IMG/VR virus record: IMGVR_UViG_3300027692_000001
Strand: one strand, 5' to 3'
Length of the DNA stretch: 64,000 nucleotides
From: a virus
Shown here: positions 7,302 through 33,826 of the stretch, in pieces
Layout of the letters: the number at the start of each line of letters is the position of its first letter
Position numbering within the stretch: the first letter of the stretch is position 1
Position numbers and translations under genes: made by a program
The notes under the pieces: generated by a model
Told to the model about the DNA's origin: nothing
The model's input: only the letters and a program-made list of their open reading frames with translations
The model's database searches: none

Positions 7302-7330
7302 CGGTCCTCGTTTCGTAGGGGTTTGGGGTA

Positions 7331-17746: not shown

Positions 17747-17769
17747 ACCGAGAGGCCGCAGGCATCCTC

Positions 17770-19530
17770 GTGCAAGCCGAGGACACTGGCCGTGTACTGT
17801 TGGTCCAGCGGTTGCCCGACAAGCACGACGAGGACGAAGCGTATGCCAGGTGGGAGTTCCCAGGAGGCCGGCTTGACGACTCCGACGCTTCCGTCTGGGC
17901 TGGCGCTGTCCGAGAGTTTGAGGAAGAAACTGGATGCCCTCTCCCTGCCAGCGTGGAGCCTTCCGGTGGATGGACCAGTGACGATGGAGTCTACGAGGGC
18001 TTTGTTCTTCAAGTGGCCCGAGAGTCAATGCTTGTACCGCACCCTCAACCCGACGAAATCTCCCGCGTCCAGTGGTGGGACCCCGCCGACCTAGACGACC
18101 CCCGCATCCGCGAGAAGGTTACTGAGCAGCTGGGCGACATCAAGCCCCTCCTGAAGTCGTTCCACCGCCACACCGACGCGATCCTGGCCCACTACACCCC
18201 CCTGATCCAAGACTCGATGGCCCAGATCATCGAAGGCGACACCGTCCGTCATGCGATCCGCGCCGCGTACACCTCGGTCCACAAGGCCACAGCGGGCACG
18301 CACAGCAAGCGATCGGGGATGGTGTCTCTTGATGTGCCCGCTGGCCTTATCCCCGTCATGGCGGGGGGAGTGCCAGATCAGCACATAACGGTCGTGTTCC
18401 TCGGGAGCGACGTGGGGGACGCCACGTTCGCCGCCGTGTGCGCCCTAGCGGAGACGGTCGCTGCGTCGGTCTCTGGTCCGGTGAGCGGCACTATCGGTGG
18501 TCTCGGGACCTTCCCTCCCTCGGAGAGCAGTGATTGGCTGGTGCCTGTCTGGGCTAAGCCTGAGATCGTTGGTATCGCCCAGTTGCGGGCCCCGTTTGAG
18601 CCGTGGAACGCCAGCCAGCACAAGGACTTCCACCCGCACATGACATTGGCGTACCTTGACCCTGACGAACCGCTCCCCGCTCCCGTGCCGCCTACTCCCG
18701 TGACGTTCACTCATCTTTCGGTTCACAGGGGCGACGAGGTAGTTCGGTTCCCGTTCGGCGGCGCTGTTAAGGCGATGACCCCGACCGCGCCGGGCTCGCA
18801 GAACACCCCGAAGTACCAGCGCCAGTTGCAAGCCCTGATCAGTTCTCCCCAAACCGTCATAGGCGCAGCAGGGGTAGGTGCCGGCGCTGCCCTGGCGGGA
18901 CCGGCCTTAGCAACCGCTGGCGGGGTGGGTAGCGCCGTCCTCGCCCTCTTGAACGCACAGTTAAAGCTAGGGGCGCTCACGGCCGTTCTGACGGCTCTGT
19001 ACGGCGATGCACTCCTTCAAGGCGCTTACGAGGCCTCACAGGCCTCTGGGAAGCCCCTACCGCCATTGGGGCTTCCCGAGGGCTACTGGGACCAGTGGGT
19101 GCCGGGGCACAACGACCTCGCCGCCCAGCTCCCCGGTGGCACGCTCCAAGAACTGCTCGCGGCCCAAGGCGTCACGATCCGAGGGATCTCTGAGACGCAG
19201 TTGAACCGTATCGCCGACGCCATTGCCGAGGCAGTGCGCGATGGAGTCCCAATGAAAACCACGGTCGTAAAGATCGAAGCCATCATTGGAGACGCCGCTC
19301 GAGCCCAACTGATTGCGTCCACCGAGTACGCGAGGGCTGTGACGGCGGCTAGGCGGGCGTTCTACCGTGCCAACCACATAGGCATGGTGGCCTGGATCGC
19401 CCACCCGGACGCGTGTGAACTGTGCAAAGAAAACGAGGCCGTGTCGCCTAGGGCACTTAGGGACTCGTGGCCGAACGGAGAGCCACCGGTCCACCCTGCT
19501 TGCCGGTGTGTTCTGGCGCCTGCTCCGTAG
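17770..19530 (+). CDS. Nudix hydrolase / 2H phosphoesterase (LigT-like) / MuF-like head morphogenesis fusion protein
   Basis: Nudix box ...GGRLDDSDASVWAGAVREFEEETG. Two HxTx motifs (HITV, HMTL) about 95 aa apart. The C-terminus ...AWIAHPDACELC...PPVHPACRCVLAP is typical of SPP1 gp7/MuF minor capsid proteins. Confidence 0.8.
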   Translation: MQAEDTGRVLLVQRLPDKHDEDEAYARWEFPGGRLDDSDASVWAGAVREFEEETGCPLPASVEPSGGWTSDDGVYEGFVLQVARESMLVPHPQPDEISRVQWWDPADLDDPRIREKVTEQLGDIKPLLKSFHRHTDAILAHYTPLIQDSMAQIIEGDTVRHAIRAAYTSVHKATAGTHSKRSGMVSLDVPAGLIPVMAGGVPDQHITVVFLGSDVGDATFAAVCALAETVAASVSGPVSGTIGGLGTFPPSESSDWLVPVWAKPEIVGIAQLRAPFEPWNASQHKDFHPHMTLAYLDPDEPLPAPVPPTPVTFTHLSVHRGDEVVRFPFGGAVKAMTPTAPGSQNTPKYQRQLQALISSPQTVIGAAGVGAGAALAGPALATAGGVGSAVLALLNAQLKLGALTAVLTALYGDALLQGAYEASQASGKPLPPLGLPEGYWDQWVPGHNDLAAQLPGGTLQELLAAQGVTIRGISETQLNRIADAIAEAVRDGVPMKTTVVKIEAIIGDAARAQLIASTEYARAVTAARRAFYRANHIGMVAWIAHPDACELCKENEAVSPRALRDSWPNGEPPVHPACRCVLAPAP

Positions 19531-19678
19531 CCTTCCTGAGCAACCTCAGGACGTACTCGGCGTCGTTGTAAGAGCCGAAGTGCCCGATGGTGGTCCAAGC
19601 GTCCTCAGGTTGCCACCGCATCAAGAGGTCGCGGCCGGTTCCGGCGACCGCTTCTAGGTCAAACTGGGGCTGGGTCAT
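19457..19678 (-). CDS. hypothetical protein
   Basis: 73-aa ORF abutting the upstream minus-strand gene. Its 3' end overlaps the MuF gene 3' end by 74 nt, so the true extent is uncertain. Confidence 0.4.
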   Translation of the reverse strand: MTQPQFDLEAVAGTGRDLLMRWQPEDAWTTIGHFGSYNDAEYVLRLLRKATEQAPEHTGKQGGPVALRSATSP

Positions 19679-20040
19679 CAGTCGTCGTCCCGAGGACCGC
19701 GCACGCGCTCGATGGTCACCCGGTACTCCCGGCCCTCTTGGACGTAGTTCATGGCCGCGGGGTTCTCGACGGTCAGGGTGAACTCGCCGGAAGGGCTCGC
19801 TTGGGCAAACTGTCGGTTCTCGTGCTCAGGGTCCGTCGAATAGACCGGGCTCATCTTCCAAACGGCCTGCGATGCCTTGGTCGTCTCCACCCGAGTATGG
19901 GTGGCTCCTTTGAGCCAGAAGGGAAGGTCCGCTGGATTGGCGATTGCCTGGGCCCCTTCCTCGTCAGGCTCGCAGGCGACGCGCATCCCATAGCTGCGCC
20001 TGGTCACTTCGTAGCATCTCATCTTGGCGACTACTGCCAT
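19678..20040 (-). CDS. hypothetical protein
   Basis: 120-aa ORF with an AGGAGG SD, opposite in strand to the late operon. Confidence 0.6.
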   Translation of the reverse strand: MAVVAKMRCYEVTRRSYGMRVACEPDEEGAQAIANPADLPFWLKGATHTRVETTKASQAVWKMSPVYSTDPEHENRQFAQASPSGEFTLTVENPAAMNYVQEGREYRVTIERVRGPRDDD

Positions 20041-20103
20041 TCCAACCTCCTAATGGTGGGTTTTGATACTTGCGGGCGGTAGTCTATACCTTAGGAGGTC
20101 CCA

Positions 20104-20460
20104 TTGCTGATCTGCCTCGATTTGGATGGGACGATCGGTGCGGCCCCTGAGTTTTACAAAGCGCTCATGGAGGGTCTACAGGCAGCTGGCTGCGAGGTCC
20201 ACATCCTCACCGGCTCCCCCGGTGTCGCCTCCCAAGAAGAACTCGACGCCAAGAAGGCCCAGCTGGACGCTCTTGGGGTTGGGGACTGCTACGACAAACT
20301 CGTGGTCGTCTCGGGCCCTGAGAAGGACGTGGCAACTGGGAAGGTCGCCTACATGGGCCACGTCGGGGCCACGGCCTTGGTGGACAACGAGAAGCGAAAT
20401 GTGAAGGCGGCGCGCAAGGGCGGCTTTCTGGCCTTACGACACCTAGAGCCGAAGCACTAA
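20104..20460 (+). CDS. HAD-superfamily phosphatase / nucleotidase-like protein
   Basis: TTG start after TAGGAGG. The N-terminal motif I is LICLDLDGTIG (DxDxT). Confidence 0.6.
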   Translation: MLICLDLDGTIGAAPEFYKALMEGLQAAGCEVHILTGSPGVASQEELDAKKAQLDALGVGDCYDKLVVVSGPEKDVATGKVAYMGHVGATALVDNEKRNVKAARKGGFLALRHLEPKH

Positions 20461-20492
20461 GGTCGTGTCAAGCTAGCTTACACGGAGGCCCC

Positions 20493-21146
20493 ATGCCCGA
20501 CATCGCCCTAGTGGTCATCACCGACGGTCGGCGGGAGTTCCTCCGTGAGACGATCGCCAGCCTCCGAGAAAACGCGGGGCCCTTTGAGGAAGGGTTCATC
20601 GTGGACGACTCGGGTGATGAGGAGTACGGCGAGTGGCTTGACAACGAGTACTTCCCTCGATTCAGGGTCCTGCATCACACGGAGCGCCGAGGTTGCAGTG
20701 CGGCGGTTCGCACTGGCTGGGAGCACGCCTCAGAGCATGAGTACATCTGGCACGCCGAGGACGACTTCATTTACAGACGGGTCGTTCCCTTGGGCCGCAT
20801 GGTGGCGATTCTGGATGACCATCCCTACCTCGCCCAGCTAGCCCTCAAGCGCGGTCCCCACGGCCCCGTCGAACTCGCCGTAGGCGACCTCATGGCGGTC
20901 GAACTGGACCGCTGGGAGGACCACGAGGGCTTCTGCGACACCGACCTGATCTTCACCTTCAACCCCTGCCTGATCCCCAGAGATGTCATAGCGGTAGCCC
21001 TGGCCGATCCGTCGCCCCGGACTGAGCCCAACGTCACGACCTCCCTCTTGGCGAAGGGCTACCGCTTTGGCTACCTCGGCCAAACGACCGATCCTCCGCG
21101 CGTCCACCACATCGGGGAGCGGCGTATGGAAGGCTGGCTGCCGTGA
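20493..21146 (+). CDS. glycosyltransferase (GT-A-like)
   Basis: The N-terminus IALVVITDGRREFLRETIASL and DDSGD acidic motif fit a GT2-like nucleotide-sugar transferase. Confidence 0.6.
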   Translation: MPDIALVVITDGRREFLRETIASLRENAGPFEEGFIVDDSGDEEYGEWLDNEYFPRFRVLHHTERRGCSAAVRTGWEHASEHEYIWHAEDDFIYRRVVPLGRMVAILDDHPYLAQLALKRGPHGPVELAVGDLMAVELDRWEDHEGFCDTDLIFTFNPCLIPRDVIAVALADPSPRTEPNVTTSLLAKGYRFGYLGQTTDPPRVHHIGERRMEGWLP

Positions 21147-21307
21147 TCAACCTTATGGCCCCCTTCTTCAGCAAGAGCCGCGGCGAGTGGGGGCAGATTG
21201 ACTGGACCTCTAGCGGCATTGCCGGGATGAACCTTTTGCTCGATCTCAACGCTGGGGTTGATCCTGGCGTGGCTATCAAGCGTTTTGAGGAACGGCGACC
21301 AGCGTGA
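21143..21307 (+). CDS. possible small protein
   Basis: Not in the track. 54 aa with GTGA overlaps at both ends. Confidence 0.35.
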   Translation: MINLMAPFFSKSRGEWGQIDWTSSGIAGMNLLLDLNAGVDPGVAIKRFEERRPA

Positions 21308-22008
21308 TCGCCGGCATCTGCCACGTCAAGAACGAGATCGACATCGTAGAGCTCGTGATCCGCCACACCCTCGCGGAAGGGGTGGACCACCTGTGGGTGC
21401 AGGATCACATGAGCACCGATGGGACCTGGGACCTGCTTCAGGAATACGCGAAGGAATATCCCATCACCCTTTTGCGCGATGAGATTCCAGTGTTCTACCA
21501 ACCGGAGAGGATGAACGCACTCGCTCGGATGGCCTATGTGAGTGGCGCAGAGTGGGTGCTGCCCTTTGATGCTGACGAGTTCTTCTACGCCCCCAGCGGG
21601 CGCACAGTGGCCGCAGAACTGGCTCTGGAGGACCTCTCGACGTTGAAGTTGTTCTGCCGGTCGTGGAGGTACCTCGACTTCAGTCGACGGGACGTGACTC
21701 CTCAGCGCTCCAAGGTTGTGTTCCGGGCAGCACCCGGGGCGCGACTCGTCGCTGGTAACCATGACGTGACCCTCCCCGATGGGACTGAGCATGTCTTGGA
21801 GGTCGCCCACTACCAGTACCGCTCCCTAGAGCAGTTCATCCGCAAGGTCCGCGGGCTTGAGGCCTACCAGTCCTTGTTCCCCACCCAGGGCCGCCCTCCC
21901 TGGCTCGACCTCACCGACGAGGAACTAGCCGTCGAGTGGGACAAACTGTGCGCCGTTGAAACCGTCGTAGACCCCATACCCCTCCGAGTCCCCGAGGATG
22001 CCCGTTGA
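21304..22008 (+). CDS. glycosyltransferase family 2-like protein
   Basis: ICHVKNEIDIVELVIRHTLAEGVDHLWVQDHMSTDGT...LPFDADEFF (DxD-like). Confidence 0.6.
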   Translation: MIAGICHVKNEIDIVELVIRHTLAEGVDHLWVQDHMSTDGTWDLLQEYAKEYPITLLRDEIPVFYQPERMNALARMAYVSGAEWVLPFDADEFFYAPSGRTVAAELALEDLSTLKLFCRSWRYLDFSRRDVTPQRSKVVFRAAPGARLVAGNHDVTLPDGTEHVLEVAHYQYRSLEQFIRKVRGLEAYQSLFPTQGRPPWLDLTDEELAVEWDKLCAVETVVDPIPLRVPEDAR

Positions 22009-22676
22009 ACGCAGTCGTCTACACCGCCATCACGGCGAACTACGACTCCCTGAAGCCTCACCCCGAGGTCCCTGGCGTCGACTTCGTGGCCTTCATGGAC
22101 GAGCCTGTAAGCGGCACCAACTGGGACGTGCGACAGATCGGGGAGTTCCCCGACGAGCACCCGCGCCTCACGGCGAAGGCGTACAAGCTGCTCCCCCACA
22201 TCTACCTCCCCGAGTACGAGTACAACGTCTGGCTGGACGCGGACTTCCAGATCACCTCCCCCACGTTCCCTGAGGAGGCCCTAGCTTGCGTTCAGGGGGC
22301 CGGTATCGCGATGTGGCCCCATACCCGCCACGACGACATCCGGGGCGAGCATGACGAGTCCGCGTGGCAGGCGAAGTACGTGGGCACGCAGATCTCCGAG
22401 CAGGTCGCCCACTACATTGCCGAGGGCATCCCTAAGCCCTCTGGGGTTTGGTGTACCGGCGTCCAGGCCCGCAAGACCCACGACCCCCAAGTTGTGAGGC
22501 TGCTCGAGATATGGATGTCGGAGAACCACCGCTGGAGCTATCAGGACCAGATCAGCTTCCCCTACGCGGTGTGGAAGACCGGAGTGGTCCCCGACCCTCT
22601 GCCTCCGCAGTGGACGGCGACCGACTGCCCGTGGTTTGACCTCCTGCCTCACAACCCGCACGCCCTAGTGCCGTGA
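22005..22676 (+). CDS. DUF616/TOD1-like glycosyltransferase
   Basis: VVYTAITANYDSLKP...WLDADFQI matches the DUF616 pattern from memory. Confidence 0.6.
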   Translation: MNAVVYTAITANYDSLKPHPEVPGVDFVAFMDEPVSGTNWDVRQIGEFPDEHPRLTAKAYKLLPHIYLPEYEYNVWLDADFQITSPTFPEEALACVQGAGIAMWPHTRHDDIRGEHDESAWQAKYVGTQISEQVAHYIAEGIPKPSGVWCTGVQARKTHDPQVVRLLEIWMSENHRWSYQDQISFPYAVWKTGVVPDPLPPQWTATDCPWFDLLPHNPHALVP

Positions 22677-23485
22677 TCGTCTTAGTCACAGGCGGCGGAG
22701 GGTTCATAGGGGCCTATGTGGAGGCAGCGCTCAAAGCCGAGGGCCATGAGCCAATCATCTTTGACCGGCCCAGCGATGTGCGCGAGACGCTTGACTTGGC
22801 TGCTGTGGGACCGGTTGACGCGGTGATCCACCTTGCAGGGAGGCTCGGGACCGCGGAACTGTTCGGCGGCTTCGACGAGGCTGTAGACGTGAACGTGAAG
22901 GGCACCCAGCGCGTCCTTGAGTACTGCCGCCAGGTGGGGGCCTCCTACGTCGGGATCACGATGCCAGAAGTTTGGGCGAACGTGTATCAGGCGACCAAGC
23001 GCTGCGCTCGTATTCTTGCAACGGCTTGGCACGAGTCCTACGGAGTGCCCGTAAGTCATGTCTGTGCCTTCAACGCCTTCGGGATCGGACAGAAGTACGG
23101 CCCCGGACATCCTCAGAAGATCATCCCCACCTTCGCCTCAAGAGCTTGGGCTGGGGAGCCGATAACGATCTGGGGGGATGGCACGCAAACGGTGGACCTC
23201 ATCTCGGCGACCGAGGTCGCCAAGGTCCTGGTGGCCGCTCTCGACTACGGAGGGGATCAGGTCTTCGACGCCGGCACTGGTGGAGAGTGGACCGTCAACG
23301 AGGTCGCCAAGTACGTCTTGGAAGTGACCGGCTCACCCTCCGAGATCGTCCACTACCCGATGCGTGAGGGGGAGCGCCCCCACACTCGTCTCAAGGCCTC
23401 GGGGGGAGGCTGGGACCTGCTCGGCTGGCACCCTGTCTTTGACCTCACCGAACTGGATGACACGATCCTGAGCTACCGGAGATAA
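22673..23485 (+). CDS. NAD-dependent epimerase/dehydratase (SDR)
   Basis: Rossmann motif VLVTGGGGFIGAYV and a YxxxK-type YQATK. Confidence 0.8.
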   Translation: MIVLVTGGGGFIGAYVEAALKAEGHEPIIFDRPSDVRETLDLAAVGPVDAVIHLAGRLGTAELFGGFDEAVDVNVKGTQRVLEYCRQVGASYVGITMPEVWANVYQATKRCARILATAWHESYGVPVSHVCAFNAFGIGQKYGPGHPQKIIPTFASRAWAGEPITIWGDGTQTVDLISATEVAKVLVAALDYGGDQVFDAGTGGEWTVNEVAKYVLEVTGSPSEIVHYPMREGERPHTRLKASGGGWDLLGWHPVFDLTELDDTILSYRR

Positions 23486-23487
23486 GC

Positions 23488-24111
23488 GTGGACCGCGCCC
23501 CTATCACGGTAATCACCGCATCCATCCCCGGCCGTGAGGAGTTGCTTGGTGCGACCCTCGCCAGCGTCTACAACCAGCGAACTCCGGTCGAAAGCCACTT
23601 GGTAATGGCCCAGACCATCACGCCGGGGATGCCTGGCCCCCAGCACTGCGCGATCCAGCAGGGCTACCTCCTGCCCGCGGTCCGCAGCGAGTTCACAATG
23701 AGGCTCGCGGACGACGACCAGTTGCTCCCTAACTACGTCGAGACGATGCTCCCGTACCTGGACCAGGCCGATGTGCTCTACGCGTGGGACGCCAACGGCA
23801 GTAGGCCCCGCGTGAACTGCAACGACTGGGGTCACTCGCGCGTACTCTCAACTCTTGAGAGTTCCAACTGGATAGACGGCTCGGCAGTCCTGATGCGTAC
23901 AGAGATCCTCCGGTCCTTCGGAGGCTGGCCCACTGAATGGGAGGGAGCTGGGTTGTTCCAGGGCGGCCACTTCGCTGGGTATCAGAGTGGGTACGACGAC
24001 CAGACCGTGTTCTACTGCATGGCTAAGGCCGGCGCTCGGTTCCTCTGCGTGGAGCAAGAACTCTGGGCCTACGGGACTGGCCCCTGGAGCCGGCTCAGCA
24101 CTGGAGGTTGA
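23488..24111 (+). CDS. glycosyltransferase family 2
   Basis: ITVITASIPGREELLGATLASVYNQ and LADDDQL (DxD). Confidence 0.65.
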   Translation: MDRAPITVITASIPGREELLGATLASVYNQRTPVESHLVMAQTITPGMPGPQHCAIQQGYLLPAVRSEFTMRLADDDQLLPNYVETMLPYLDQADVLYAWDANGSRPRVNCNDWGHSRVLSTLESSNWIDGSAVLMRTEILRSFGGWPTEWEGAGLFQGGHFAGYQSGYDDQTVFYCMAKAGARFLCVEQELWAYGTGPWSRLSTGG

Positions 24112-24112
24112 C

Positions 24113-24748
24113 GTGCCCGCCGTCGGCATCCTCATCCCTGCGATGCGCGCCCACAAGATCCCCGCGCTGATCGACAATATCGAAGCTGTCACCCCCGCCA
24201 AGCACAAGGTCTACTGGGCCGCCGCCCTAGACAGTGAGTGCGCTGGGGTCCTCAAAGCCCTCAAGCAGGAGGTCTTGCTTGACAAGGGAGGGTCCTGGCC
24301 GGTCAGGATCAATGCCCTCTACAAAATGAGCAAAGAGCCCTACGTCTTCCTCGGCGCCGACGACCTCCTGTACCACCCCGAGTGGTACGAGCGGGCCCTT
24401 GAGTGCATGGAGAGGGTCGAGAACTGCGGTGTCGTATCGGTCAACGACCTGAACAACCCCTACGGCACCTCATCGCTCATCTCACGGGAGTACATCAAGA
24501 CCTTCGGCGGGACGATGGACGGCAGCGGCCCGATCATCCACCCCGGCTACCACCACAACTGGTGCGACACCGAACTGCGTCAAACAGGTGAACACCGCGG
24601 GCGGTGGGTCTACTGCGAGCACTCCATCGTGGAACACATACACCACGACAATAAGAAGGCCCCTTACGACGAGGTGTACGCCCTCGGGGACAAGCACCTC
24701 GCGGAAGACGTTGAGTTGTTCTTCTCCCGCCACCCGCTGTGGGCGTGA
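24113..24748 (+). CDS. glycosyltransferase-like protein
   Basis: GTG 2 nt after the previous stop. VGILIPAMR...FLGADDLLY has a GT-A-like layout. Confidence 0.5.
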   Translation: MPAVGILIPAMRAHKIPALIDNIEAVTPAKHKVYWAAALDSECAGVLKALKQEVLLDKGGSWPVRINALYKMSKEPYVFLGADDLLYHPEWYERALECMERVENCGVVSVNDLNNPYGTSSLISREYIKTFGGTMDGSGPIIHPGYHHNWCDTELRQTGEHRGRWVYCEHSIVEHIHHDNKKAPYDEVYALGDKHLAEDVELFFSRHPLWA

Positions 24749-25362
24749 GTGTCCCCGCGTTCGTCATTGTCAGAGACAGGCTCACCGACCTCAAGGCCCT
24801 CGTTGAGTGGCTAGAGCGCGCAGGGCACGACCGGATCACCTTTTTAGACAACGACTCGACCTGGCCTCCGCTGCTCGAGTACCTCGAAAAGACCCCGCAC
24901 AAGGTCATCTACTTCGGGCAGAACATGGGCCCTCACGTCCTGTGGGACTGGGACGTGCCCGACGAGTACTTCATCTACACCGACCCTGACGTGGTACCCC
25001 ACGAGGACTGCCCCCTCGACGCGGTGGACCACCTCCGCTGGCTCTTGGACAACCATGACGTGCCCAAGGCTGGGCTGGGGCTGCACATCGACGACGTAGT
25101 GCCGACCCCGCAACTGCGATGGGAGTGGGAGCTCCACCATGAACACCGCTGGCGCGGGGATTGCTACGACTCACCCGTAGACACGACGTTCGCCCTGTAC
25201 CGCCCCAGCTCTCCGCGCTCGCTCATCGCAGTCCGTTCCGCCTTCCCGTATGAGGTGCGCCACATGCCCTGGTACCGCCGCAACGACCTGACGGAGGAAG
25301 ATGTCCACTACTTCTCTCGGGCGTCTGGTGCGTCAACCTGGAAGCCGCAGATAGGACGATGA
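24745..25362 (+). CDS. hypothetical protein of the glycosylation island
   Basis: GTGA overlap. AFVIVRDRL...ITFLDNDST...YTDPDVVP has a GT-like acidic-motif pattern. Confidence 0.5.
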   Translation: MSVPAFVIVRDRLTDLKALVEWLERAGHDRITFLDNDSTWPPLLEYLEKTPHKVIYFGQNMGPHVLWDWDVPDEYFIYTDPDVVPHEDCPLDAVDHLRWLLDNHDVPKAGLGLHIDDVVPTPQLRWEWELHHEHRWRGDCYDSPVDTTFALYRPSSPRSLIAVRSAFPYEVRHMPWYRRNDLTEEDVHYFSRASGASTWKPQIGR

Positions 25363-26213
25363 GGGCCCTAGTCACTGGGCACGCGGGGTTTGTGGGGAGG
25401 AACTTCGCCAAGAGGCTCATCTCCGATGGTTGGGAGGTCACAGGGGTTGACCTGCGACCAAGCGACACTGGGAGATCGGTGCAAGCCGACTGCCGGGACT
25501 TCTTCACCGTCAGCGACGGGTATGACCTCCTAGTTCACTGCGCCGCCGTCATAGGCAGCCGGCAGGAGCGCGACGAGAACCCGCTGCTCGTGTACGAAGA
25601 CCTCTCGATCGACCAGCAAGCCATCGCTTGGTGCCACGAGACGGGGACACCGCTGTTCTACTTCTCTTCCTCGGCTGCTTACCCGACAGATCTAACGGGC
25701 CCTTTCAAGGAGTGGGTCCTTGCGCCCGAGCACATCTGGGCACCGGACGCTGCCTATGGGTTCATCAAGCTCGTTGGGGAGCGCCAGTGCCGGGAGCTAC
25801 GGAAGCTTGGAGGGACCGTCTACATCGTTCGCCCCTTCTCTGGCTACGGTGCAGACCAGTCCTTGGACTACCCCTTCCCCTCGATCCTGAAGCGGGCCGT
25901 GGCTAAGGAAGATCCTCTGACCGTGTGGAGCGACGTCGAGCGCGATTTCATCCACATCGACGACGTAGTGAGCGCGTGCCTGACGATGGTCGACAAGGCC
26001 ATCTTCGGGCCGGTGAACATCGGCTCAGGTATCCCGACCAAGATGACCGAGCTCGCGCGGTTGGCGGCGCAAACGGTGGGTTACGACCCAGAGATCAGAG
26101 TGCTGGGCAAGTCGGTCGGCCCCGACCACCGCTTTGCCGACACGGCCAAGATGCAGGAGTTCTACGAACCAACGATCTCGCTCACTGAGGGCGTCCGAAT
26201 GAGTGTGGGATAA
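25359..26213 (+). CDS. NAD-dependent epimerase/dehydratase (SDR), second copy
   Basis: ALVTGHAGFVGRNF Rossmann motif and YGFIK (YxxxK). Confidence 0.8.
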   Translation: MRALVTGHAGFVGRNFAKRLISDGWEVTGVDLRPSDTGRSVQADCRDFFTVSDGYDLLVHCAAVIGSRQERDENPLLVYEDLSIDQQAIAWCHETGTPLFYFSSSAAYPTDLTGPFKEWVLAPEHIWAPDAAYGFIKLVGERQCRELRKLGGTVYIVRPFSGYGADQSLDYPFPSILKRAVAKEDPLTVWSDVERDFIHIDDVVSACLTMVDKAIFGPVNIGSGIPTKMTELARLAAQTVGYDPEIRVLGKSVGPDHRFADTAKMQEFYEPTISLTEGVRMSVG

Positions 26214-26223
26214 GGAGGGACCT

Positions 26224-26838
26224 ATGTGCGTCACTTGCGGTTGTGGGTCCCCCTTTGACGGGAACGGGGACGGGCGGAACATCACCATGGGCCGGCTCTT
26301 GTCGGCTGCCGACGCGGCTGGGATACCCATCGAACAGGCGGCTAAGAACGTCATGGCCACGGTCCTGATGCGCGTCAACAAGGAAGCTGGCACTGACCTC
26401 GCTGCCTGTCGCGTTGTCAAGGCGTCCGAGGAACGCCGCTACACCTTGGGTGTGGCTTATCCCGCCATGAAGGCCGACGTTTCCCGTGCCGCGGACGGCA
26501 AGAGGGACTTCGTTTCCCCCGAGGTGCTTGAAAAGACCGCTTGGAGTTGGATGGCCAAGCATCGCGACATCAACCTGTTCCACCGCAGTGACGAAGCCTC
26601 GACCGGTCATGGGACTGTCGTTGAGAGCTACATCTACCGTGGGCCGGACTGGGTACAAGACAGTCCCGTTGACGGCAAGCCCTACGTTGTCAAGGCGGGG
26701 GACTGGTGTCTGGCGTGTGTTTGGGATGAGTTCGGCTGGGCGCTTGTGAAAGCTGGCCTAGTCAATGGCTGGTCCCCTGAGGGCACTGCCCGTCGCTCCA
26801 TTCCAAGTCCCGAGCGGCTAGCGCTTCTAAGGAGCTGA
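26224..26838 (+). CDS. XkdF-like putative prohead serine protease
   Basis: ATG after AAGGAGGGA. RYTLGVAYPA...DFVSPEVLEKTAWSWM...INLFH...GDWCLACVWDE...GWSPEG resembles the PBSX XkdF family. Confidence 0.6.
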   Translation: MCVTCGCGSPFDGNGDGRNITMGRLLSAADAAGIPIEQAAKNVMATVLMRVNKEAGTDLAACRVVKASEERRYTLGVAYPAMKADVSRAADGKRDFVSPEVLEKTAWSWMAKHRDINLFHRSDEASTGHGTVVESYIYRGPDWVQDSPVDGKPYVVKAGDWCLACVWDEFGWALVKAGLVNGWSPEGTARRSIPSPERLALLRS

Positions 26839-26839
26839 T

Positions 26840-28618
26840 ATGGAAACTGCAATCACCGAACTGGAAGAGCTAGGGGCCGAGAAGGTCAGTGGAGTGGGGA
26901 GCCCTGCCAATGGCACGCCCTGGCTCCTGCTCAAGTCCACCGACGTCGAGGCCGACCCGAACTCGCCGCACACGTCATCCCCTGAGGCTGATGCTCAGGA
27001 AGCGGAGATGACCAAAGCGGAGGCCGATGAGATCGAGGCTCTGCTCACCAAGGCCGAGAGCGCTGGCTTCTGCTACGTGGACGACTGCGAAGTATGCAAG
27101 GACCACTTCGGCCCACTCCACGACGAACTGCTCAAGCGCAAGCTGAGGATGAAGGACCGTCGAGCGCTACCCAAGGGCGACTTCGCCGTGCCCGCCAAGG
27201 CACCTGCGAGCGGCAGCTACCCGATCAACGACGAGAGCCATGCTCGCAACGCCCTGTCTCGAGCCTCTGGTAAGCCCGTAGAGGCTCAGGTGCGCGCCGC
27301 GGTCCACCGGAAGTACCCGAACATCGGTGCCGAGAAGGAGCGCCTTGAGAAGTCCCCTGGCGTGCCTGACGAGTCGGTCCAGGCGCCCAAGGAGAAGGGC
27401 CACCTCGCCACAGGGCAGTCCGGTCTCGCTGGCCCTGTCACTGCGGGCCATGTCCGACCCGACAACAGCCCGTCTTATGAGGTCGGTGGCAAGACCCCCT
27501 ACATCATCCCCGACGAGGCCAAGGTGACGAACAACCCTCCCTTTGAGCGCCGCCCCCGTCAGGAAGCAATGCCTCAGGGTTCCGAGGACATGGGCAAGGA
27601 GTCTTGGGAGATCGAGGTCGTGGACAAGCAGAACTGGGTCAGTCTCGACAACAACCCCGCTATGGCCTCTGAGATGCCCCAGGAGCCTTCGGTCCAGTCT
27701 GCTAACGCAACAGTGCTCGACCGGATCGTCTGCGCCTACGTGGCCCTCAAAGAGGCAATGGCGGCACAGAAGGCTGACCCCGACGGGATGACCGATCCCC
27801 TCGATGCTCAGGTGTGGGCGCACCTCGAAGACGTGTGCGCCACTCTGAAGAACGCTCTCATTGACCAAGCCCTGGACAGCGTTGGCATAGACGCCGCTCT
27901 GCTCAAGGCCGAGAACCTCCTCACCAAACTTGGTGGGGCCGACACAACCGCCGGCAACGGCGCCCGAACCTCCGAGGAGGAGAACATTATGACCACCGTC
28001 ACCAAGGAGGATCTCACCGCACTTGTAAGTGAGACCGCTGGTGCTGCTGCTGTCGCGGCTGTCAAAGAAGCGCTGAAGGCTGAGCGCAAGGCCGAAAAGG
28101 CCAAGATGAAGGGCAAGATGAAGGGCAAGAAGCCGCCTTTCATGCCAGCCGAGAAGAATGCCAACAACGGCGGGGATATTACCCGTGAGCAGGAAGAGGC
28201 TGGCGTCAAGGGCGAGAACAAGGCCAACGATGTGAACTCAGTTGGTGGCCCAGTCGACAGCCAATATGTCAACAAGGAAAAGACAGGTAAGAAAGACAAG
28301 GCGATCAAGCAGCTCGTGGAGGCCCAGGCCGCAGAACTCGGCGAGGTCAAAGGGTTGCTTGAGAAGATGTCGAAGCGTCCCCGTTCTGGGGGCCCGTTCC
28401 TCGGAGTAGCCGCTAGCGGGGCCTTCCCGGCCGCCGAAGGGCGACACAGCGAGAGCGTGGCCAAGAGTGCAGAGGATGCCGAACTCGAGCCTCTCCTGAA
28501 GGAGATCGAGCAGATGGGAGGCAAGCCGGGGTGGGACAACGCCCAGCGGTACGCCGACCTTCAACAGCAAGCCACCCTTATTCGGCTTCGCAACGCTCGT
28601 CTCAACAGCCTGCTCTGA
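26840..28618 (+). CDS. scaffolding-like protein
   Basis: 592 aa, charged, coiled-coil-rich, between the protease and the capsid gene. Contains a YPINDESHARNALSRA motif seen in phage head-assembly proteins. Confidence 0.5.
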   Translation: METAITELEELGAEKVSGVGSPANGTPWLLLKSTDVEADPNSPHTSSPEADAQEAEMTKAEADEIEALLTKAESAGFCYVDDCEVCKDHFGPLHDELLKRKLRMKDRRALPKGDFAVPAKAPASGSYPINDESHARNALSRASGKPVEAQVRAAVHRKYPNIGAEKERLEKSPGVPDESVQAPKEKGHLATGQSGLAGPVTAGHVRPDNSPSYEVGGKTPYIIPDEAKVTNNPPFERRPRQEAMPQGSEDMGKESWEIEVVDKQNWVSLDNNPAMASEMPQEPSVQSANATVLDRIVCAYVALKEAMAAQKADPDGMTDPLDAQVWAHLEDVCATLKNALIDQALDSVGIDAALLKAENLLTKLGGADTTAGNGARTSEEENIMTTVTKEDLTALVSETAGAAAVAAVKEALKAERKAEKAKMKGKMKGKKPPFMPAEKNANNGGDITREQEEAGVKGENKANDVNSVGGPVDSQYVNKEKTGKKDKAIKQLVEAQAAELGEVKGLLEKMSKRPRSGGPFLGVAASGAFPAAEGRHSESVAKSAEDAELEPLLKEIEQMGGKPGWDNAQRYADLQQQATLIRLRNARLNSLL

Positions 28619-28685
28619 TCCGTCCCATAAATCAGCACCAACGCGACCGGCTTAGGTCGTCGCGCCCCAGAACGAAGGAGAACCA

Positions 28686-30185
28686 ATGCCTCCCGGTGCA
28701 ACTGCCGACATCGAACTCCTAACTAAGGAGACGATGGAAATCTTCAAGAAGGCCCAGACCACGGGCCTTTACGCCTCTACGGGTATCCAGGGCGTAGACC
28801 TCTCAGGGCTTGTCAGCCTTGTCCCGGTCAACGTGCCGGCCCGTAATAACACGAGCGCCTTCCCTCGCGTCATTGCTGGCGAAGGCTCCCAGACTGCCAC
28901 TTGGCGGTCGCTGCTCAACGTCAACAGCTCGCAGACCGACGCCGCGGTAGGCATCGACTACGCAGGCTCGCTGACGATCCTCGACGAGCAGGACTGCTTC
29001 GCGACCTACAAGGTCCTCGCGAAGGCCAACCGCGTCACCCTTGACGCTGTGGCGTTCGCCCGGAACTACGCCGATGCTCTTGCCGTTGCCGAGCTCCAGA
29101 CGCTGAACCAACTGTTCATCGCCCAGGATCTCTACATCATCAACGGGCAGAACTGGGCGCTCGGTACCCCGGCTGGCCCTCTCACTCTGACCCCGGCAGC
29201 CACAGGCGGTTCGATCGCCTCGGGCACCGTCGTTTACGTGTCGGTCGCAGCGAAGTCCGGTGCCAACTACTTCGTCAACAACGGCAACTCGCCGGCTCTG
29301 ACGGGGCACACCACGGTTGGTACGACGAGTTCCACCAATACCCTCACGGCCTCCATCCCGGCAGTCAAGGGCGCGGTGGCCTACGACTGGTATGTCGGGA
29401 CTTCCGCGGCGCAGTACTACTACACGACCACGACCGTCGCCCAGGCGACCTTCACGAGCGTGTATACCGCTGCCCAAGCCCCCCCGACGACCCTGCCGTT
29501 GTTCACCACTCTGGCGAACCCTCCGTCGACGGCCCCCACGGCCGACACGAGCTACAACGCGGCCAACTGGTACAACGGGATCATCGCCTCCACCTTGGGC
29601 GACTACGGCTCACTCGGGCCCGTAACGCCTGGGACTGGAACGGCCACAGGGGCCATCTTCATCGACAATGGTGGCAATGCCCCGAACCTCTCGGGCGGCG
29701 GCATCGACATCTTGGACACCATCAACGACAAGATCTGGGCGAGCGTCCAGCTCTCGCCGACGGCCTACATGATGAACTCGCTCCAGGGCGACGAAATCTC
29801 CAAGGCCATCTTGGCGTCGAGCTCCGCGACCACGTTCCTGCCTCCCACGGATGCCGACGCTAGGACGAACCTGGCGGGCGGCGGCTACATCGGGCGGTAC
29901 ATCAACCGTGCTGCGGGAGGTGTTCCCGTCGCGATCGAGATCCACCCGAGGATGGCACCGGGGACGATCTTCGCAAGGTGCGACCGGGTGCCGTTCCCGG
30001 GGAGCAATATCGGGAGCGTGTTTGAGGTCAGGGCGCAATACGACACAATGCGCTTTGACTACTCTGCCAACATGACCCAGAACAGCCTCGGCGGCGGCCC
30101 CAGGTACGATTTTGAGATCAGAAGCAACGAAGTGCTGGTCAACCGTGCCCCGGTGGCCCAGGCCGTCGCCTGCAACATCGCCTAA
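28686..30185 (+). CDS. major capsid protein with Thr/Ser/Ala-rich insertion
   Basis: 499 aa with a strong SD (GAAGGAGAA), sited after the scaffold gene. There is an insertion of about 130 aa (nt ~29160-29560) rich in T/S/A. Confidence 0.65.
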   Translation: MPPGATADIELLTKETMEIFKKAQTTGLYASTGIQGVDLSGLVSLVPVNVPARNNTSAFPRVIAGEGSQTATWRSLLNVNSSQTDAAVGIDYAGSLTILDEQDCFATYKVLAKANRVTLDAVAFARNYADALAVAELQTLNQLFIAQDLYIINGQNWALGTPAGPLTLTPAATGGSIASGTVVYVSVAAKSGANYFVNNGNSPALTGHTTVGTTSSTNTLTASIPAVKGAVAYDWYVGTSAAQYYYTTTTVAQATFTSVYTAAQAPPTTLPLFTTLANPPSTAPTADTSYNAANWYNGIIASTLGDYGSLGPVTPGTGTATGAIFIDNGGNAPNLSGGGIDILDTINDKIWASVQLSPTAYMMNSLQGDEISKAILASSSATTFLPPTDADARTNLAGGGYIGRYINRAAGGVPVAIEIHPRMAPGTIFARCDRVPFPGSNIGSVFEVRAQYDTMRFDYSANMTQNSLGGGPRYDFEIRSNEVLVNRAPVAQAVACNIA

Positions 30186-30227
30186 TCGCACTTGCGAAGT
30201 CGGTGATACTGTTATAAACTCTGGTAC

Positions 30228-31034: not shown

Positions 31035-31070
31035 GTGCGCTGGGGGGAGGCCCAAACAAAGGGAACGAAC

Positions 31071-31367: not shown

Positions 31368-31375
31368 CCTGAGCC

Positions 31376-31825: not shown

Positions 31826-32359
31826 TTGAGGGTTGTCGTACCGTTCGTCGACCTTCACCCCAAGACTCGGGAGTCGGTAGCCCTCTACGCCCCCACCGCC
31901 GAGCTCATAGAACTCTCTCGGGCCGACGACGCCTACTACAAGGTGCTCGCCGGCCTGTGGGAGGGGGGCGACACTTTCTTGGTGATCGAACAGGACAATG
32001 AGGTCCATGCGACCGTAGTACCCGAGTCCGAGGCCTGTCCTGAACCCTGGTGTGTATGGCCATACCCCGGCCCCGCTGGTGCCACTGGAGACTGTCTCAC
32101 CTACTACTCCCTCGGCTGTACGAAGTTCTCCGCTGACCTGTTAGCCAAGGCCCCTACGTTGATGGCCGACCTTCCCTCCCACGACTGGCGAAGGCTGGAC
32201 GCCCTAATGCTCCCCCTGCTCCGCGAAGCCGTCGGAGAACCCCACTGGCACATCCCCCCGGTCAACCATCACCATGTGCGACCATGGGTGCTGCAACGCC
32301 GCTGCGACTGCGGTGGCATCCTTGAAGAAGGGACGACATCATGCCTTTCCCCCTGTTGA
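31826..32359 (+). CDS. conserved protein, paralog 1 (possible GT-A-like transferase)
   Basis: Shares FLVIE(Q/E)D, ACPEPWC, LGCT(K/R)FS, DW(R/K)RLD and HHH blocks with 33335-33826. Confidence 0.6.
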   Translation: MRVVVPFVDLHPKTRESVALYAPTAELIELSRADDAYYKVLAGLWEGGDTFLVIEQDNEVHATVVPESEACPEPWCVWPYPGPAGATGDCLTYYSLGCTKFSADLLAKAPTLMADLPSHDWRRLDALMLPLLREAVGEPHWHIPPVNHHHVRPWVLQRRCDCGGILEEGTTSCLSPC

Positions 32360-32541: not shown

Positions 32542-32565
32542 CCGCGCGCCACAGAGGCGCTGTGA

Positions 32566-32887: not shown

Positions 32888-33335
32888 CCCGAATTGCGGA
32901 TTTGACTACCGCCCCGAGGACATGATCGGCGAGGACGACCTCACCCCTGAGGAGCGTGCTGCGTTTGACGAGCGCGTCCTGTTTTACCGCAACCTGGAAT
33001 ATGTAGGCGGGAAGCACGCACCCTGGGAGTTCATCCCCTTTGCCTGCATCAGGACCCAGATGGCTCGCCACCTCCGAGGCCTCTACGACTGGTGGTACCT
33101 CATAGGGCGTCGCTCGAATTTAGGTATCACCATCATCACCGAAGTTCGCGACGTGGCCTACGGGCCCGAGGAGGTCCCGACACGGGAGCCGGGGTATGTC
33201 CTCCTGGCTTCCTGCCACGGCCATGCCCCCAAGTCTGGTGGCAAGCCCAGGTTCCCGTTCCCGGGTACCAACTGGTCGGACTCCGACATCGTGACGTACC
33301 CTGCGCTTCAGGAGTTCATTCTCGCTCCCGCCTGA
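32877..33335 (+). CDS. hypothetical protein
   Basis: 152-aa ORF with good GC3. Confidence 0.55.
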   Translation: MCADPNCGFDYRPEDMIGEDDLTPEERAAFDERVLFYRNLEYVGGKHAPWEFIPFACIRTQMARHLRGLYDWWYLIGRRSNLGITIITEVRDVAYGPEEVPTREPGYVLLASCHGHAPKSGGKPRFPFPGTNWSDSDIVTYPALQEFILAPA

Positions 33336-33826
33336 TGAGGGTCGTCTGCTGCTACGTCGAGGGCAAACTCCACCCCCTTACCTTGGCGGCGCTCAAAGAA
33401 CATGCCCCCGACGCCGACCTTGTAGACCTCGGCAAAGCGTGGGACGCTTACTACCTCTTCTTGGCTCAGCTTTGGGAAGAGGGCGAGGGCTTTCTGGTAA
33501 TCGAAGAGGACATTGAGGTCCACGCTGAGGTTCTCCCTCAGCTTGAGGCGTGCCCTGAACCGTGGTGCCTCTTCGCGTTCCCTGGTGCCGGTGGCGCTCT
33601 GCTCTCTGGCTCCCTCGGCTGCACCCGCTTCTCCACCGAACTCCTTGCTGCCCACCCCGACCTCATGGCCAAGCTCCCCGTGCGCGACTGGAAGCGCCTC
33701 GACTCCGAGATCCTTCCTGCTCTTACGAAGCTCGGCTACACCCAACACGTCCACGAACCCCCCGTCCCCCATCACCACTACCGTCCCGAGAGGCGGCTGT
33801 GTGACTGCGGAGCGACAGAGCACTAG
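33335..33826 (+). CDS. conserved protein, paralog 2 (possible GT-A-like transferase)
   Basis: The ATG shares one base with the upstream TGA. Collinear with 31826-32359 along its full length. Confidence 0.6.
   Translation: MRVVCCYVEGKLHPLTLAALKEHAPDADLVDLGKAWDAYYLFLAQLWEEGEGFLVIEEDIEVHAEVLPQLEACPEPWCLFAFPGAGGALLSGSLGCTRFSTELLAAHPDLMAKLPVRDWKRLDSEILPALTKLGYTQHVHEPPVPHHHYRPERRLCDCGATEH

Follow-up and report, generated by a model that had tools for sequence, protein, structure and literature searches.

The capsid and tail tube of cluster O mycobacteriophages have been reported to be glycosylated (PMC4351075; PMC11600133), and a cassette of an O-methyltransferase gene and three glycosyltransferase (GT) genes is located in the interval from the portal gene to the protease gene of these phages (PMC4351075). 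The Corndog cassette comprises the O-methyltransferase gp35 and the glycosyltransferases gp36-38. In cluster F, the GT-A transferases gp108-110 of Che8 were reported to glycosylate capsid and tail-tube subunits (PMC12363180, PMC11256854). In mycobacteriophages, capsid and tail-tube subunits have been reported to carry their glycans C-terminally; in Corndog these two subunits end in ...GS and ...DS. Among eukaryotic viruses, PBCV-1 encodes A64R, which glycosylates its capsid protein, together with GMD/GMER, and mimivirus carries a fibril glycosylation cluster that includes L138.

The locus described here lies in a 64,000-nt stretch of DNA (the window) from an uncultivated phage of actinobacterial type. 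Like the Corndog cassette, it occupies the slot between a portal/head-morphogenesis gene and the prohead protease gene, is co-directional with the head genes, and combines several small GT-A transferases with sugar tailoring. In Corndog, three transferases are accompanied by a methyltransferase, whereas the island pairs six transferases with two SDR nucleotide-sugar enzymes; the phages also differ in capsid type and host group, and glycosylation, demonstrated in Corndog, is predicted here. Che8 likewise uses phage-encoded GT-A transferases, but its genes are at the right genome end rather than in the head operon and are not accompanied by nucleotide-sugar-modifying enzymes. No homology was detected between the island enzymes and Che8 gp108-110 or, by sequence or profile, Corndog gp36-38. 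Giant viruses share with the island the combination of nucleotide-sugar tailoring SDRs with several GT-A transferases, which there glycosylate virion proteins, although their capsids are unrelated and the likeness is at the fold level only (11-25% identity); g8 structurally resembles mimivirus L138 and CroV/Fadolivirus proteins (TMq 0.67-0.78). The island is most likely a larger version of the system proven in a few mycobacteriophages.

Organization of the island and its flanks

The region 20104-26213 contains nine well-supported co-directional genes (Table 1): six encode GT-A-type glycosyltransferases, two encode members of the extended SDR epimerase/dehydratase family and one encodes a small HAD-like protein. 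Its limits coincide exactly with gene ends, the start of g1 and the stop of g9, also in the independent ENA gene calls. TerL, portal and NUDIX-2H-MuF fusion genes are located upstream, and S78_2 protease, scaffold and major capsid protein (MCP) genes downstream, which confirms the preliminary description of a block of sugar genes between MuF and the protease/scaffold/capsid genes. The capsid protein shares 38-39% identity with the proteins annotated as MCP in Arthrobacter phages Mufasa8 and Sonali.

Table 1. Features of the island and neighboring genes
Feature	Position	Strand	Description	Evidence
NUDIX + 2H/LigT-like + MuF fusion	17770..19530	+	head morphogenesis; upstream flank, outside island	PHROG and Pfam matches
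Two small genes	19457..20040	-	73 and 120 aa; break the operon between MuF and g1, outside island	ORF list, ENA gene calls, phrog_6978 7.6e-10
g1	20104..20460	+	small cap-less HAD-like phosphatase, 118 aa; conserved backbone gene outside inserted cassette	HAD motifs, weak PDB matches
g2	20493..21146	+	GT2-family GT-A glycosyltransferase, 217 aa; DDSG at 38, EDD at 89	Glycos_transf_2 (PF00535) 48 bits, 1.4e-12; phrog_3047
Spacer	21147..21303	.	variable spacer / tailoring slot	holds doubtful 54-aa ORF (21143-21307)
g3	21304..22008	+	Glyco_tranf_2_4 / GT92-like GT-A glycosyltransferase, 234 aa; DADE at 89	PF13704 58 bits, 1.7e-15
g4	22005..22676	+	TOD1/MUCI70 glycosyltransferase-like protein, 223 aa; DAD at 78	TOD1/MUCI70, formerly DUF616 (PF04765) 46.5 bits, 3.9e-12; phrog_26101
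g5	22673..23485	+	short extended-SDR epimerase/dehydratase-family enzyme, 270 aa; TGGGGFIG at 6, YQATK at 105	Epimerase (PF01370) 105 bits, 7e-30; phrog_540 7e-44
g6	23488..24111	+	GT-A-like glycosyltransferase, 207 aa; DDD at 75	phrog_14775 glycosyltransferase 5.7e-6; weak PF00535
g7	24113..24748	+	GT-like protein, 211 aa; ADD at 82	phrog_14945 glycosyltransferase 1.2e-8
g8	24745..25362	+	divergent GT-A glycosyltransferase, 205 aa; DNDS at 35, DPD at 80; cassette-family marker	AlphaFold (AF2), Foldseek
g9	25359..26213	+	extended-SDR, GDP-L-fucose-synthase-like, 284 aa; TGHAGFVG at 6, YGFIK at 133	Epimerase (PF01370) 122 bits, 3e-35; NCBIfam Fcl 1.4e-22
Prohead protease	26224..26838	+	Peptidase_S78_2; downstream flank	
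Scaffold-like protein	26840..28618	+	592 aa	position; conserved in relatives
Major capsid protein	28686..30185	+	499 aa; Ser/Thr-rich central domain, candidate glycan acceptor	match to Arthrobacter phage MCPs; alignment
p177	31826..32359	+	minimal GT-A-like protein, probable additional glycosyltransferase; outside island interval	AF2 pLDDT 90.7
p163	33335..33826	+	p177 paralog	53% identity
Probable major tail protein	36082..37281	+	399 aa; Ser/Thr-rich, second candidate acceptor	phrog_290 4e-16; synteny with Mufasa8

Four-nucleotide overlaps join g2 to the 54-aa ORF, this ORF to g3, g3 to g4, g4 to g5, g7 to g8 and g8 to g9, while only 1-2 nt lie between g5 and g6 and between g6 and g7; the gap between g1 and g2 is 32 nt and that between g9 and the protease gene is 10 nt. 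No sigma-70-like promoters were found in 17500-31500, and terminator-like sites in this interval were fewer than expected from shuffled sequence. The island genes are translationally coupled within the late operon TerL-portal-MuF...protease-scaffold-MCP. The coupling and contiguity described earlier therefore hold, whereas the number of genes is nine instead of ten, the 54-aa ORF being rejected as a gene because it is unrelated in one island-bearing relative (L084) and absent in another (L104). The flanks of the spacer that holds it are 98% identical to those in L084, the center is unrelated, and GC3 is low. The equivalent slot in a more distant cassette, L117, is occupied by genes for a hexapeptide acyltransferase and an FkbM methyltransferase; such differing tailoring genes are as expected of a diversifying glycan locus.

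The HAD-like assignment of g1 is consistent with motifs I-IV, which were invariant across seven homologs, and with weak PDB matches, mostly to HAD-superfamily phosphatases; no match was found in Pfam or NCBIfam. Its inclusion in the island did not stand, since g1 adjoins the protease gene in island-free relatives and is, from sequence comparison, a conserved phage backbone gene. Because g1 is kept beside the protease gene in relatives without any glycosyltransferase, the inserted island is g2-g9 (20493-26213), eight sugar-handling genes.

Glycosyltransferases and SDR enzymes

Classification by Pfam, PHROG, NCBIfam, PDB and AlphaFold/Foldseek gave the functions proposed earlier. At least four glycosyltransferases and two further GT-like proteins had been expected, and all six are GT-A-type by Pfam, PHROG, AlphaFold fold or an acidic DxD-type motif, which is located at residues 75-91 in each of the six. 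The scores of g2, g3 and g4 exceed the Pfam gathering scores, and phage homologs of g4 carry a glycosyltransferase annotation. The g6 homolog in L117 scores 1.9e-5 against PF00535. The sequence of g7 had no match in Pfam or PDB, and in other phages g7 is conserved alongside g8. The g8 model (pLDDT 94.7) has a GT-A fold, and Foldseek matched it to GT-A enzymes in PDB (7e-6) and to viral GT2-like proteins including mimivirus L138; at least 410 g8 homologs were found, a few of them annotated as GT2.

Both predicted SDR epimerase/dehydratases, g5 and g9, likewise match Pfam Epimerase above the gathering score. The top PDB matches of g5, which is atypically short for an SDR, are UDP-Glc 4-epimerase, UXS and dTDP-Glc 4,6-dehydratase. 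The g9 protein, with 481 relatives in IMG/VR, aligns over its full length with the Fcl structure 7ll6, yet it scores only 80 bits against the 500-bit cutoff of NCBIfam Fcl, and Ala replaces the catalytic Cys of Fcl. Two nucleotide-sugar-type SDRs together with six glycosyltransferases fit a multi-step glycan with at least one tailored sugar. The enzyme set thus agrees with the deoxy- or epimerized sugar proposed in the preliminary description, while the low Fcl score and Ala substitution of g9 and the shortness of g5 do not allow a specific sugar to be assigned.

Conservation and recurrence in other phages

The island is common to at least two other metagenomic phages, L084 and L104, the latter with identical architecture, and is polymorphic for presence/absence, being missing from close relatives. 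The dN/dS values of the eight island genes relative to L084 were 0.085-0.33 (0.085 for g5 and 0.22 for g3), similar to those of structural genes (0.08-0.21), indicating that all eight are under purifying selection.

True homologs of g2, g3, g6, g7 and g8 (28-53% identity) were found, in unchanged order, within structural operons of uncultivated phages in IMG/VR (L117, L123, L126, L133) and Logan (L105, L106, L109). In the four IMG/VR loci the order g2-g3-g6-g7-g8 is kept at 28-50% identity, and the g2 homologs (44-50% identity) stand first in the cassettes. Unlike the island, these cassettes may be at other positions, MCP-to-tail-tube or protease-to-MCP, and have other tailoring enzymes: GT1 is present in L105, L122, L131 and L132, and a single SDR in many cassettes. 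Several unrelated phages, all uncultivated, also have homologs of g8 and of the SDRs in other combinations within their structural operons. The g8 homologs occupy three positions in structural modules of unrelated phages, always co-directionally: portal-to-protease (L105), protease-to-MCP (L122, L131, L132) and MCP-to-tail-tube (L106, L109, L112-120, L123-129, L133). Structural genes were recognizable near g8 homologs in about 24 of 79 loci with a limited structural query set, and the detected cassette partners were on one strand in all 52 loci. The cassette core is widespread in uncultivated phages, and the cassette is not unique to this phage.

Proposed function and alternatives

We consider it moderately probable that g2-g9 constitute a glycan-assembly line that is co-expressed with the head proteins and decorates virion proteins of the phage itself. 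From host NDP-hexoses, the cytoplasmic SDRs g5 and g9 would make one or two tailored donors (4-epimer, 4-keto-derived or 6-deoxy sugars), and the soluble GT-A transferases g2, g3, g4, g6, g7 and g8 would add sugars stepwise to form a hetero-oligosaccharide on Ser/Thr of structural proteins, the probable acceptors being the capsid protein, the major tail protein or both. Because the island is missing from close relatives, the glycan may not be needed for assembly but form an accessory coat on the surface, with a role in shielding, stability or adhesion. No island protein had hydrophobic segments exceeding those of the soluble proteins encoded on either side, and no flippase, polymerase or polyprenyl-phosphate transferase was found in the cassette; the system is therefore considered soluble and cytoplasmic.

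The comparative context, namely the cluster O slot and the recurrence in structural operons, favors by analogy the virion-linked role suggested in the preliminary description. Position alone is weak evidence, because accessory genes in general tend to land in late operons. No distinguishing acceptor feature and no island-specific extension or insertion was found when capsid and tail proteins of island-bearing and island-free relatives were compared, and this, together with the lack of homology to the Che8 and Corndog enzymes, counts against that role. The capsid protein here ends in ...CNIA, which has no Ser/Thr. Soluble GT-A enzymes can also use lipid-linked wall polymers, a further point against.

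Alternatively, the target during infection might be a glycopolymer of the host cell envelope (wall teichoic acid, arabinogalactan, capsule or surface glycoprotein), whose modification could block superinfection or re-adsorption of progeny to debris, much as with prophage TarP or serotype conversion of the Gtr type. Structures matched by the g8 fold include prophage TarP, heparosan synthase and hyaluronan synthase, one g8 homolog in a bacterial genome is near polysaccharide genes (Bac_transf, GT1, GT2), and combinations of SDR and GT genes are typical of polysaccharide loci. We nevertheless regard this as rather unlikely: the cassette encodes no membrane protein or components of a membrane pathway, a search of the window's larger ORFs gave no integrase, so that lysogenic conversion is unlikely, the island is tied to the late head genes and is not an autonomous moron, and the phage homologs are within structural modules wherever the context is recognizable.

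Less likely still is that the cassette targets a non-virion phage or host cytoplasmic protein, small molecule or metabolite, or is a selfish accessory block that plays no part in the particle. Its dispensability in close relatives, the failure of the capsid/tail comparison to reveal an acceptor and the presence of SunS-type peptide S-glycosyltransferases among the g8 fold matches are compatible with this explanation, but purifying selection on all eight genes and the repeated, independent placement within structural operons of unrelated phages argue against it. Hypermodification of phage DNA (glycosylated hydroxymethylated bases protecting against restriction), a target also raised in the preliminary description, is highly improbable: phage glycosyltransferases are well known in such a role (bioRxiv 10.1101/2023.12.21.572611) and in Cellulophaga phages several g4 homologs adjoin DNA methyltransferases, but the larger ORFs of the window include no DNA-base-modifying enzyme (dNMP hydroxymethylase, TET/JBP-like dioxygenase or DNA methyltransferase), the cassette is in the head operon and not beside replication genes, and six transferases and two SDRs are excessive for known DNA glycosylation.

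Additional GT-A-like genes

For decoration of the virion, p177 and p163 may assist, possibly as priming enzymes. The leading PDB fold matches of p177 are the capsid-glycosylating A64R of PBCV-1, which is the best, and STIV A197, and a p177-like gene is often located immediately upstream of g8-type cassettes in other phages. Both p177 and p163 are located downstream of the capsid gene.

Extent of the island and gene order

The preliminary description had placed a translationally coupled block of ten glycosylation genes inside the head-assembly operon. The coordinates proposed for this block coincide with gene boundaries, adjoining genes overlap by 4 nt or leave gaps of 1-2 nt, and the order of the MuF gene, g1, g2-g9 and the protease gene in the window agrees with a location in the late head operon. 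In this order g1 is a HAD-like gene, g2, g3, g4, g6, g7 and g8 are glycosyltransferase genes, and g5 and g9 encode SDR enzymes. The enzyme functions also held, save for a correction to the HAD gene, with the glycosyltransferases and SDR enzymes backed by Pfam, PHROG, sequence motifs and the predicted fold of g8. The count of ten genes was not retained, because the 54-aa ORF between g2 and g3 is no conserved gene when compared with two other island-bearing metagenomic phages, L084 and L104. At this junction L084 and the window are 98% identical in the flanks and unrelated in the centre, and L104 lacks the ORF, its g3 coming straight after g2. The junction of g2 and g3 is a variable slot.

The claim of a HAD phosphatase within the island stood in part. 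In seven homologs of g1, residues D6, D8, G9, T10, K80, D94 and N95 (HAD motifs I-IV) were invariant, and position 36 was Thr or Ser, followed by an invariant G37. No Pfam or NCBIfam match was found for g1 and its best profile-to-PDB match reached only E = 0.09, the weak PDB matches being mostly to HAD-superfamily phosphatases. Because of the invariant motifs and these weak matches, the label "HAD-like" is reasonable. Since island-free relatives (L087, L089, L091, L095/96, L099 and L110) keep g1 between MuF and the protease with no glycosyltransferases there, g1 is a backbone gene, and the insertion proper is g2-g9, located exactly at the g1/protease junction.

Table. Features of the window and of related phage sequences
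Sequence	Feature	Coordinates	Strand
Window	RusA	713-1240	
Window	RuvB-like ATPase	5951-7267	-
Window	tRNA-Met	11629-11698	
Window	TerL	13941-15503	+
Window	Portal	15503-17746	+
Window	Motif copy, portal aa 650-666	~17450-17500	
Window	NUDIX-2H-MuF fusion, head morphogenesis	17770-19530	+
Window	Two genes, 73 and 120 aa	19457-20040	-
Window	Reported block	20104-26213	+
Window	g1, HAD-like	20104-20460	+
Window	Island, g2-g9	20493-26213	+
Window	g2-g3 junction	21147-21303	
Window	S78_2 prohead protease	26224-26838	+
Window	Scaffold-like protein, 592 aa	after protease	+
Window	Major capsid protein (MCP), 499 aa	28686-30185	+
Window	Motif copy, MCP aa 25-41	~28758-28808	
Window	Endonuclease VII/WhiB fusion	30228-31034	+
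Window	Connector genes, 399-aa tail protein, tape measure protein	after MCP	+
Window	Small ORF	31376-31825	
Window	p177, 177 aa	31826-32359	
Window	Small ORF	32522-32887	
Window	p163, 163 aa	33335-33826	
Window	Small ORF	33835-34152	
Window	Exonuclease and single-strand annealing protein	54845-56253	
Window	DUF6745 protein	56840-57988	
Window	Pentapeptide-repeat protein	60922-61596	
L084	103-aa ORF between g5 and g6	2723-3034	+
L084	193-aa ORF between g7 and g8	4295-4876	-
L085	g1-to-protease slot cargo	4826-7384	
L085	Head-tail extras	14084-16424	
L117	g2-g3 slot	5484-7029	

The head operon is broken between MuF and g1 by two reverse-strand genes, the second of which matches phrog_6978 (function unknown); in L104 another reverse gene, of 213 aa, sits between g1 and g2. 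The MuF protein carries NUDIX and 2H/LigT-like phosphoesterase domains at its N-terminus. This fusion may act as an effector packaged in the capsid, degrading nucleotide signals for instance, and the HAD-like backbone gene g1 might partner the adjoining MuF fusion rather than the glycosylation genes.

Glycosyltransferases

Pfam matches above the curated cutoffs were obtained for g2 (Glycos_transf_2, PF00535), g3 (Glyco_tranf_2_4, PF13704) and g4 (TOD1/MUCI70, DUF616; PF04765). Matches of g6 and g8 fell under the Pfam cutoff, that of g8 being to GT2, and g7 had no Pfam match; PHROG glycosyltransferase families matched both g6 and g7. An acidic motif of the DxD type, which binds metal or nucleotide, was located within residues 75-91 of all six transferases (g2 EDD89, g3 DADE89, g4 DAD78, g6 DDD75, g7 ADD82 and g8 DPD80), and D80 and D82 of g8 were invariant across 59 homologs.

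PDB sequence and profile searches gave no significant match for the g8 family, for g7 or for the family of p177, a small protein encoded downstream of the MCP gene; structure prediction was therefore needed for g8 and p177. The g8 model, built from the 59-homolog alignment (pLDDT 94.7), matched GT-A enzymes including B4GALNT1, heparosan synthase, SunS, KfiA, TarP and SpsA and, among viral proteins, GT2-like proteins including mimivirus L138. By its predicted fold, g8 is thus a GT-A transferase.

p177 and its paralog p163 (53% identical) lie outside the reported block, and their family had no Pfam or PHROG match. The p177 model (pLDDT 90.7) showed a GT-A fold, with PBCV-1 A64R and STIV A197 as the best PDB fold matches, at modest TM-scores of ~0.43. 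A64R glycosylates the capsid protein of PBCV-1. Because the p177/p163 family is predicted to have a GT-A fold, the phage probably encodes eight GT-A-type proteins inside its structural gene block.

Between the capsid and adaptor genes lie three further small ORFs that even L084 and L104, with MCPs 94% identical to that of the window, lack; the first and third of them are rich in Ser/Thr or Pro. These ORFs are variable cargo of the head-tail region, and a decoration protein could be among them.

SDR enzymes and the sugar donor

Both g5 and g9 belong to the NAD-dependent epimerase/dehydratase family (PF01370) above the curated Pfam cutoff. The TGxxGxxG NAD(P)-binding motif and the YxxxK catalytic dyad were found in g5 as TGGGGFIG at 6 and YQATK at 105, and g9 carries TGHAGFVG at 6 and YGFIK at 133.

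A full-length alignment of g9 with GDP-L-fucose synthases (7ll6) was obtained; its score as an Fcl/GMER equivalog was 80.5 bits against a cutoff of 500. At the GSSCIYP motif of 7ll6, g9 reads SSSAAYP, replacing Cys by Ala; in E. coli GMER a Cys/His pair is catalytic in epimerisation. It is possible that g9 is a plain 4-reductase or epimerase, not a 3,5-epimerase/reductase. g5 scored 70.7 bits against 365 as an RmlB equivalog (dTDP-glucose 4,6-dehydratase) and 57 bits against 262 as a GalE equivalog (UDP-glucose 4-epimerase). It is unusually short (270 aa), lacks ~20 residues located after the catalytic Ser/Thr strand in its best PDB match, and is the most constrained gene of the island (dN/dS 0.085).

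The assignment of an exact reaction to g5 or g9 was rejected as over-interpretation. A non-standard sugar, such as a deoxy- or epimerised hexose, had been proposed; of this proposal a tailored NDP-hexose was kept, and a specific sugar was not assignable, the equivalog scores lying far below their cutoffs. The evidence reaches a tailored NDP-hexose and no further. The sugar precursors are presumably supplied by the host, because the scan of ORFs revealed no nucleotidyltransferase.

The island in close relatives

The same island was found at the same place in L084 (IMG/VR 3300037852_000049) and L104 (ENA ERZ28533575), with island proteins 72-94% identical to those of the window. In comparison with L084, the island genes had dN/dS values of 0.085-0.33 and structural genes values of 0.08-0.21. 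The island was considered as compositionally foreign and this was rejected, its GC and GC3 being indistinguishable from those of flanking genes; it is therefore not a recent foreign acquisition.

A survey of phages with 59-77% MCP identity distinguished three states. No glycosyltransferase was present in the available sequence of L090, L092, L093, L095/96, L100 and L110, nor in the cultured phages Mufasa8 and Sonali. The p177 family, which thus also occurs in relatives without the island, was found alone, in one or two copies downstream of the MCP gene, in L087, L089, L098 and L099, and together with an SDR in L085/86. Only the window, L084 and L104 had both the p177 family and the large island.

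L084, which of the island-bearing relatives is the closest, has two extra ORFs within its island, one of 103 aa and one of 193 aa with a GNAT-like motif and a PDB acetyltransferase match (E = 0.0035). In L085 (72% MCP identity) ~3 kb of cargo that could not be annotated (286, 455 and 107 aa) fills the g1-to-protease slot, and the head-tail genes include a p177-like gene, an SDR of full length (326 aa) and an unknown protein of 287 aa.

Homologous cassettes in unrelated phages

At least 410 homologs of g8 were found, and IMG/VR contained 368 stretches that matched it. Structural genes were recognised at ~24 of the 79 fetched loci, and at every one of these the g8 homolog was inside the structural module; the detected partners were all co-directional in 52 of 52 loci. 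In phages with differing portal, protease and MCP types, the cassette occupied three positions: portal-to-protease (L105), protease-to-MCP (L122, L131 and L132) and MCP-to-tail-tube (L106, L109, L112-120, L123-129 and L133). In these other phages a p177-like gene was usually directly upstream of g8-type cassettes.

Homologs of g2, g3, g6, g7 and g8 (28-50% identity) recur in the same order in L117, L123, L126/127 and L133, with a p177-like gene upstream of the run in L117, L123 and L133 and after g8 in L126/127; genes for a hexapeptide acyltransferase and an FkbM-type methyltransferase occupy the g2-g3 slot of L117. Because of this recurrent order, the island looks like a conserved five-transferase core with an inserted g4 (TOD1-type glycosyltransferase) and g5 (SDR) and an appended g9 (SDR). 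A constant core with varying tailoring enzymes is what one would expect of a surface glycan locus that diversifies, and the island apparently belongs to a widespread and uncharacterised family of cassettes.

One reading, offered tentatively, is that a widespread, modular family of virion-glycan cassettes has moved between the structural operons of unrelated uncultivated phages and builds complex, strain-variable heteroglycans on the particles. The core would comprise p177-like, g2, g3, g6, g7 and g8 genes, and SDRs, the TOD1-type glycosyltransferase, acyltransferase, methyltransferase and GT1 would be swappable tailoring enzymes, with several lineages, probably actinobacterial phages, making their own tailored sugar donors. 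If true, bacterial viruses would have an equivalent of the glycosylation machinery of giant viruses, and phage particle glycosylation would be far commoner and more elaborate than the few mycobacteriophage cases suggest.

Target of the glycosyltransferases

To our knowledge, phage particle glycosylation has been shown only in a few mycobacteriophages, using two to four enzymes. The window resembles two of these phages, Che8 and Corndog, in that its glycosyltransferases (six GT-A enzymes in the late head operon) would also be expressed with virion genes. In Corndog (cluster O), gp35-38 lie between portal gp34 and protease gp39 (PMC4351075), and this layout was confirmed (TylF-like gp35, gp36, GT2_2-like gp37 and GT25-like gp38); in the window, too, the portal gene precedes the cassette and the prohead protease gene follows it. 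Homology to Che8 gp108-110 and Corndog gp36-38 was not detected, the best blastp match having E 0.004 over 42 aa and hhalign probabilities being 0.2-2%, and the likeness is one of analogy and shared fold. From the documented positional precedent and the recurrent structural-module context, we infer with moderate confidence that the enzymes glycosylate the virion, which is the best-supported mechanism.

Capsid and tail proteins were colinear with those of island-free relatives, and no island-specific acceptor, such as a C-terminal extension or Ser/Thr insertion, was found in them. The Ser/Thr-rich central MCP domain is common to island-bearing and island-free phages. In virion glycosylation of the Che8/Corndog type, capsid and tail-tube subunits are reported to carry O-glycans on their C-terminal residues, and the subunits of Corndog terminate in GS and DS. 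In the window, the MCP ends in CNIA, without a hydroxyl residue, and the tail protein in TTAYYTD. No acceptor could be named from this comparison.

The late-operon position is suggestive of a virion target and not decisive, and wall polymers can likewise be the substrate of a soluble GT-A enzyme, TarP being an example. Against lysogenic conversion of the Gtr or TarP type, the island proteins are free of transmembrane-like and of conspicuous hydrophobic segments, the larger ORFs of the window yielded no integrase, and the island is without its own promoter or terminator (no promoter-like site was found, and terminator-like sites were fewer than in shuffled sequence). Glycosylation of phage DNA has little support: a scan of ~30 of the larger ORFs for a partner enzyme that makes hydroxymethyl-pyrimidine (a dNMP hydroxymethylase, or TET together with a methyltransferase) gave none. 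The ORFs scanned include the RuvB-like protein, RusA, exonuclease and annealing protein, pentapeptide protein and DUF6745 protein.

With respect to virion glycosylation, the island is a larger, chemically richer variant of the actinophage theme. A cassette of eight enzymes that tailors its own sugar nucleotides, taken with its homologs in many uncultivated phages, would make complex, diversifying glycan coats a trait that phages of the environment commonly carry as an accessory. Stability and adhesion of the particle, its recognition by hosts or predators, and evasion of antibodies in phage therapy could all be affected by these coats. The cassette would also be a source of compact, soluble glycosyltransferases and of minimal SDRs for use in glyco-engineering.

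Host and other features

Neither megablast of the island, run on 50,697 phage records, nor tblastn of g7 gave a match, so that there is no close relative in culture; metagenomic phage contigs of ~65 kb match the window (e.g. ENA ERZ27313991 k141_1344615). The nearest cultured phages are the Arthrobacter phages Mufasa8 and Sonali (38-39% MCP identity), and a contig binned with a Ferrimicrobium MAG carries an MCP 64% identical to that of the window; the host is therefore probably an actinobacterium. The gene that directly follows the capsid gene joins an Endonuclease VII domain to two WhiB-like segments, and the WhiB-like part supports an actinobacterial host.

A 438-aa reverse ORF considered as an integrase was rejected as RuvB-like. 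A 17-residue motif (including TGIQGVDL, 70% identity) is common to the C-terminal region of the portal and the N-terminal region of the MCP. Several residues of the MCP copy are invariant across relatives, and the motif may be a protease or docking signal.
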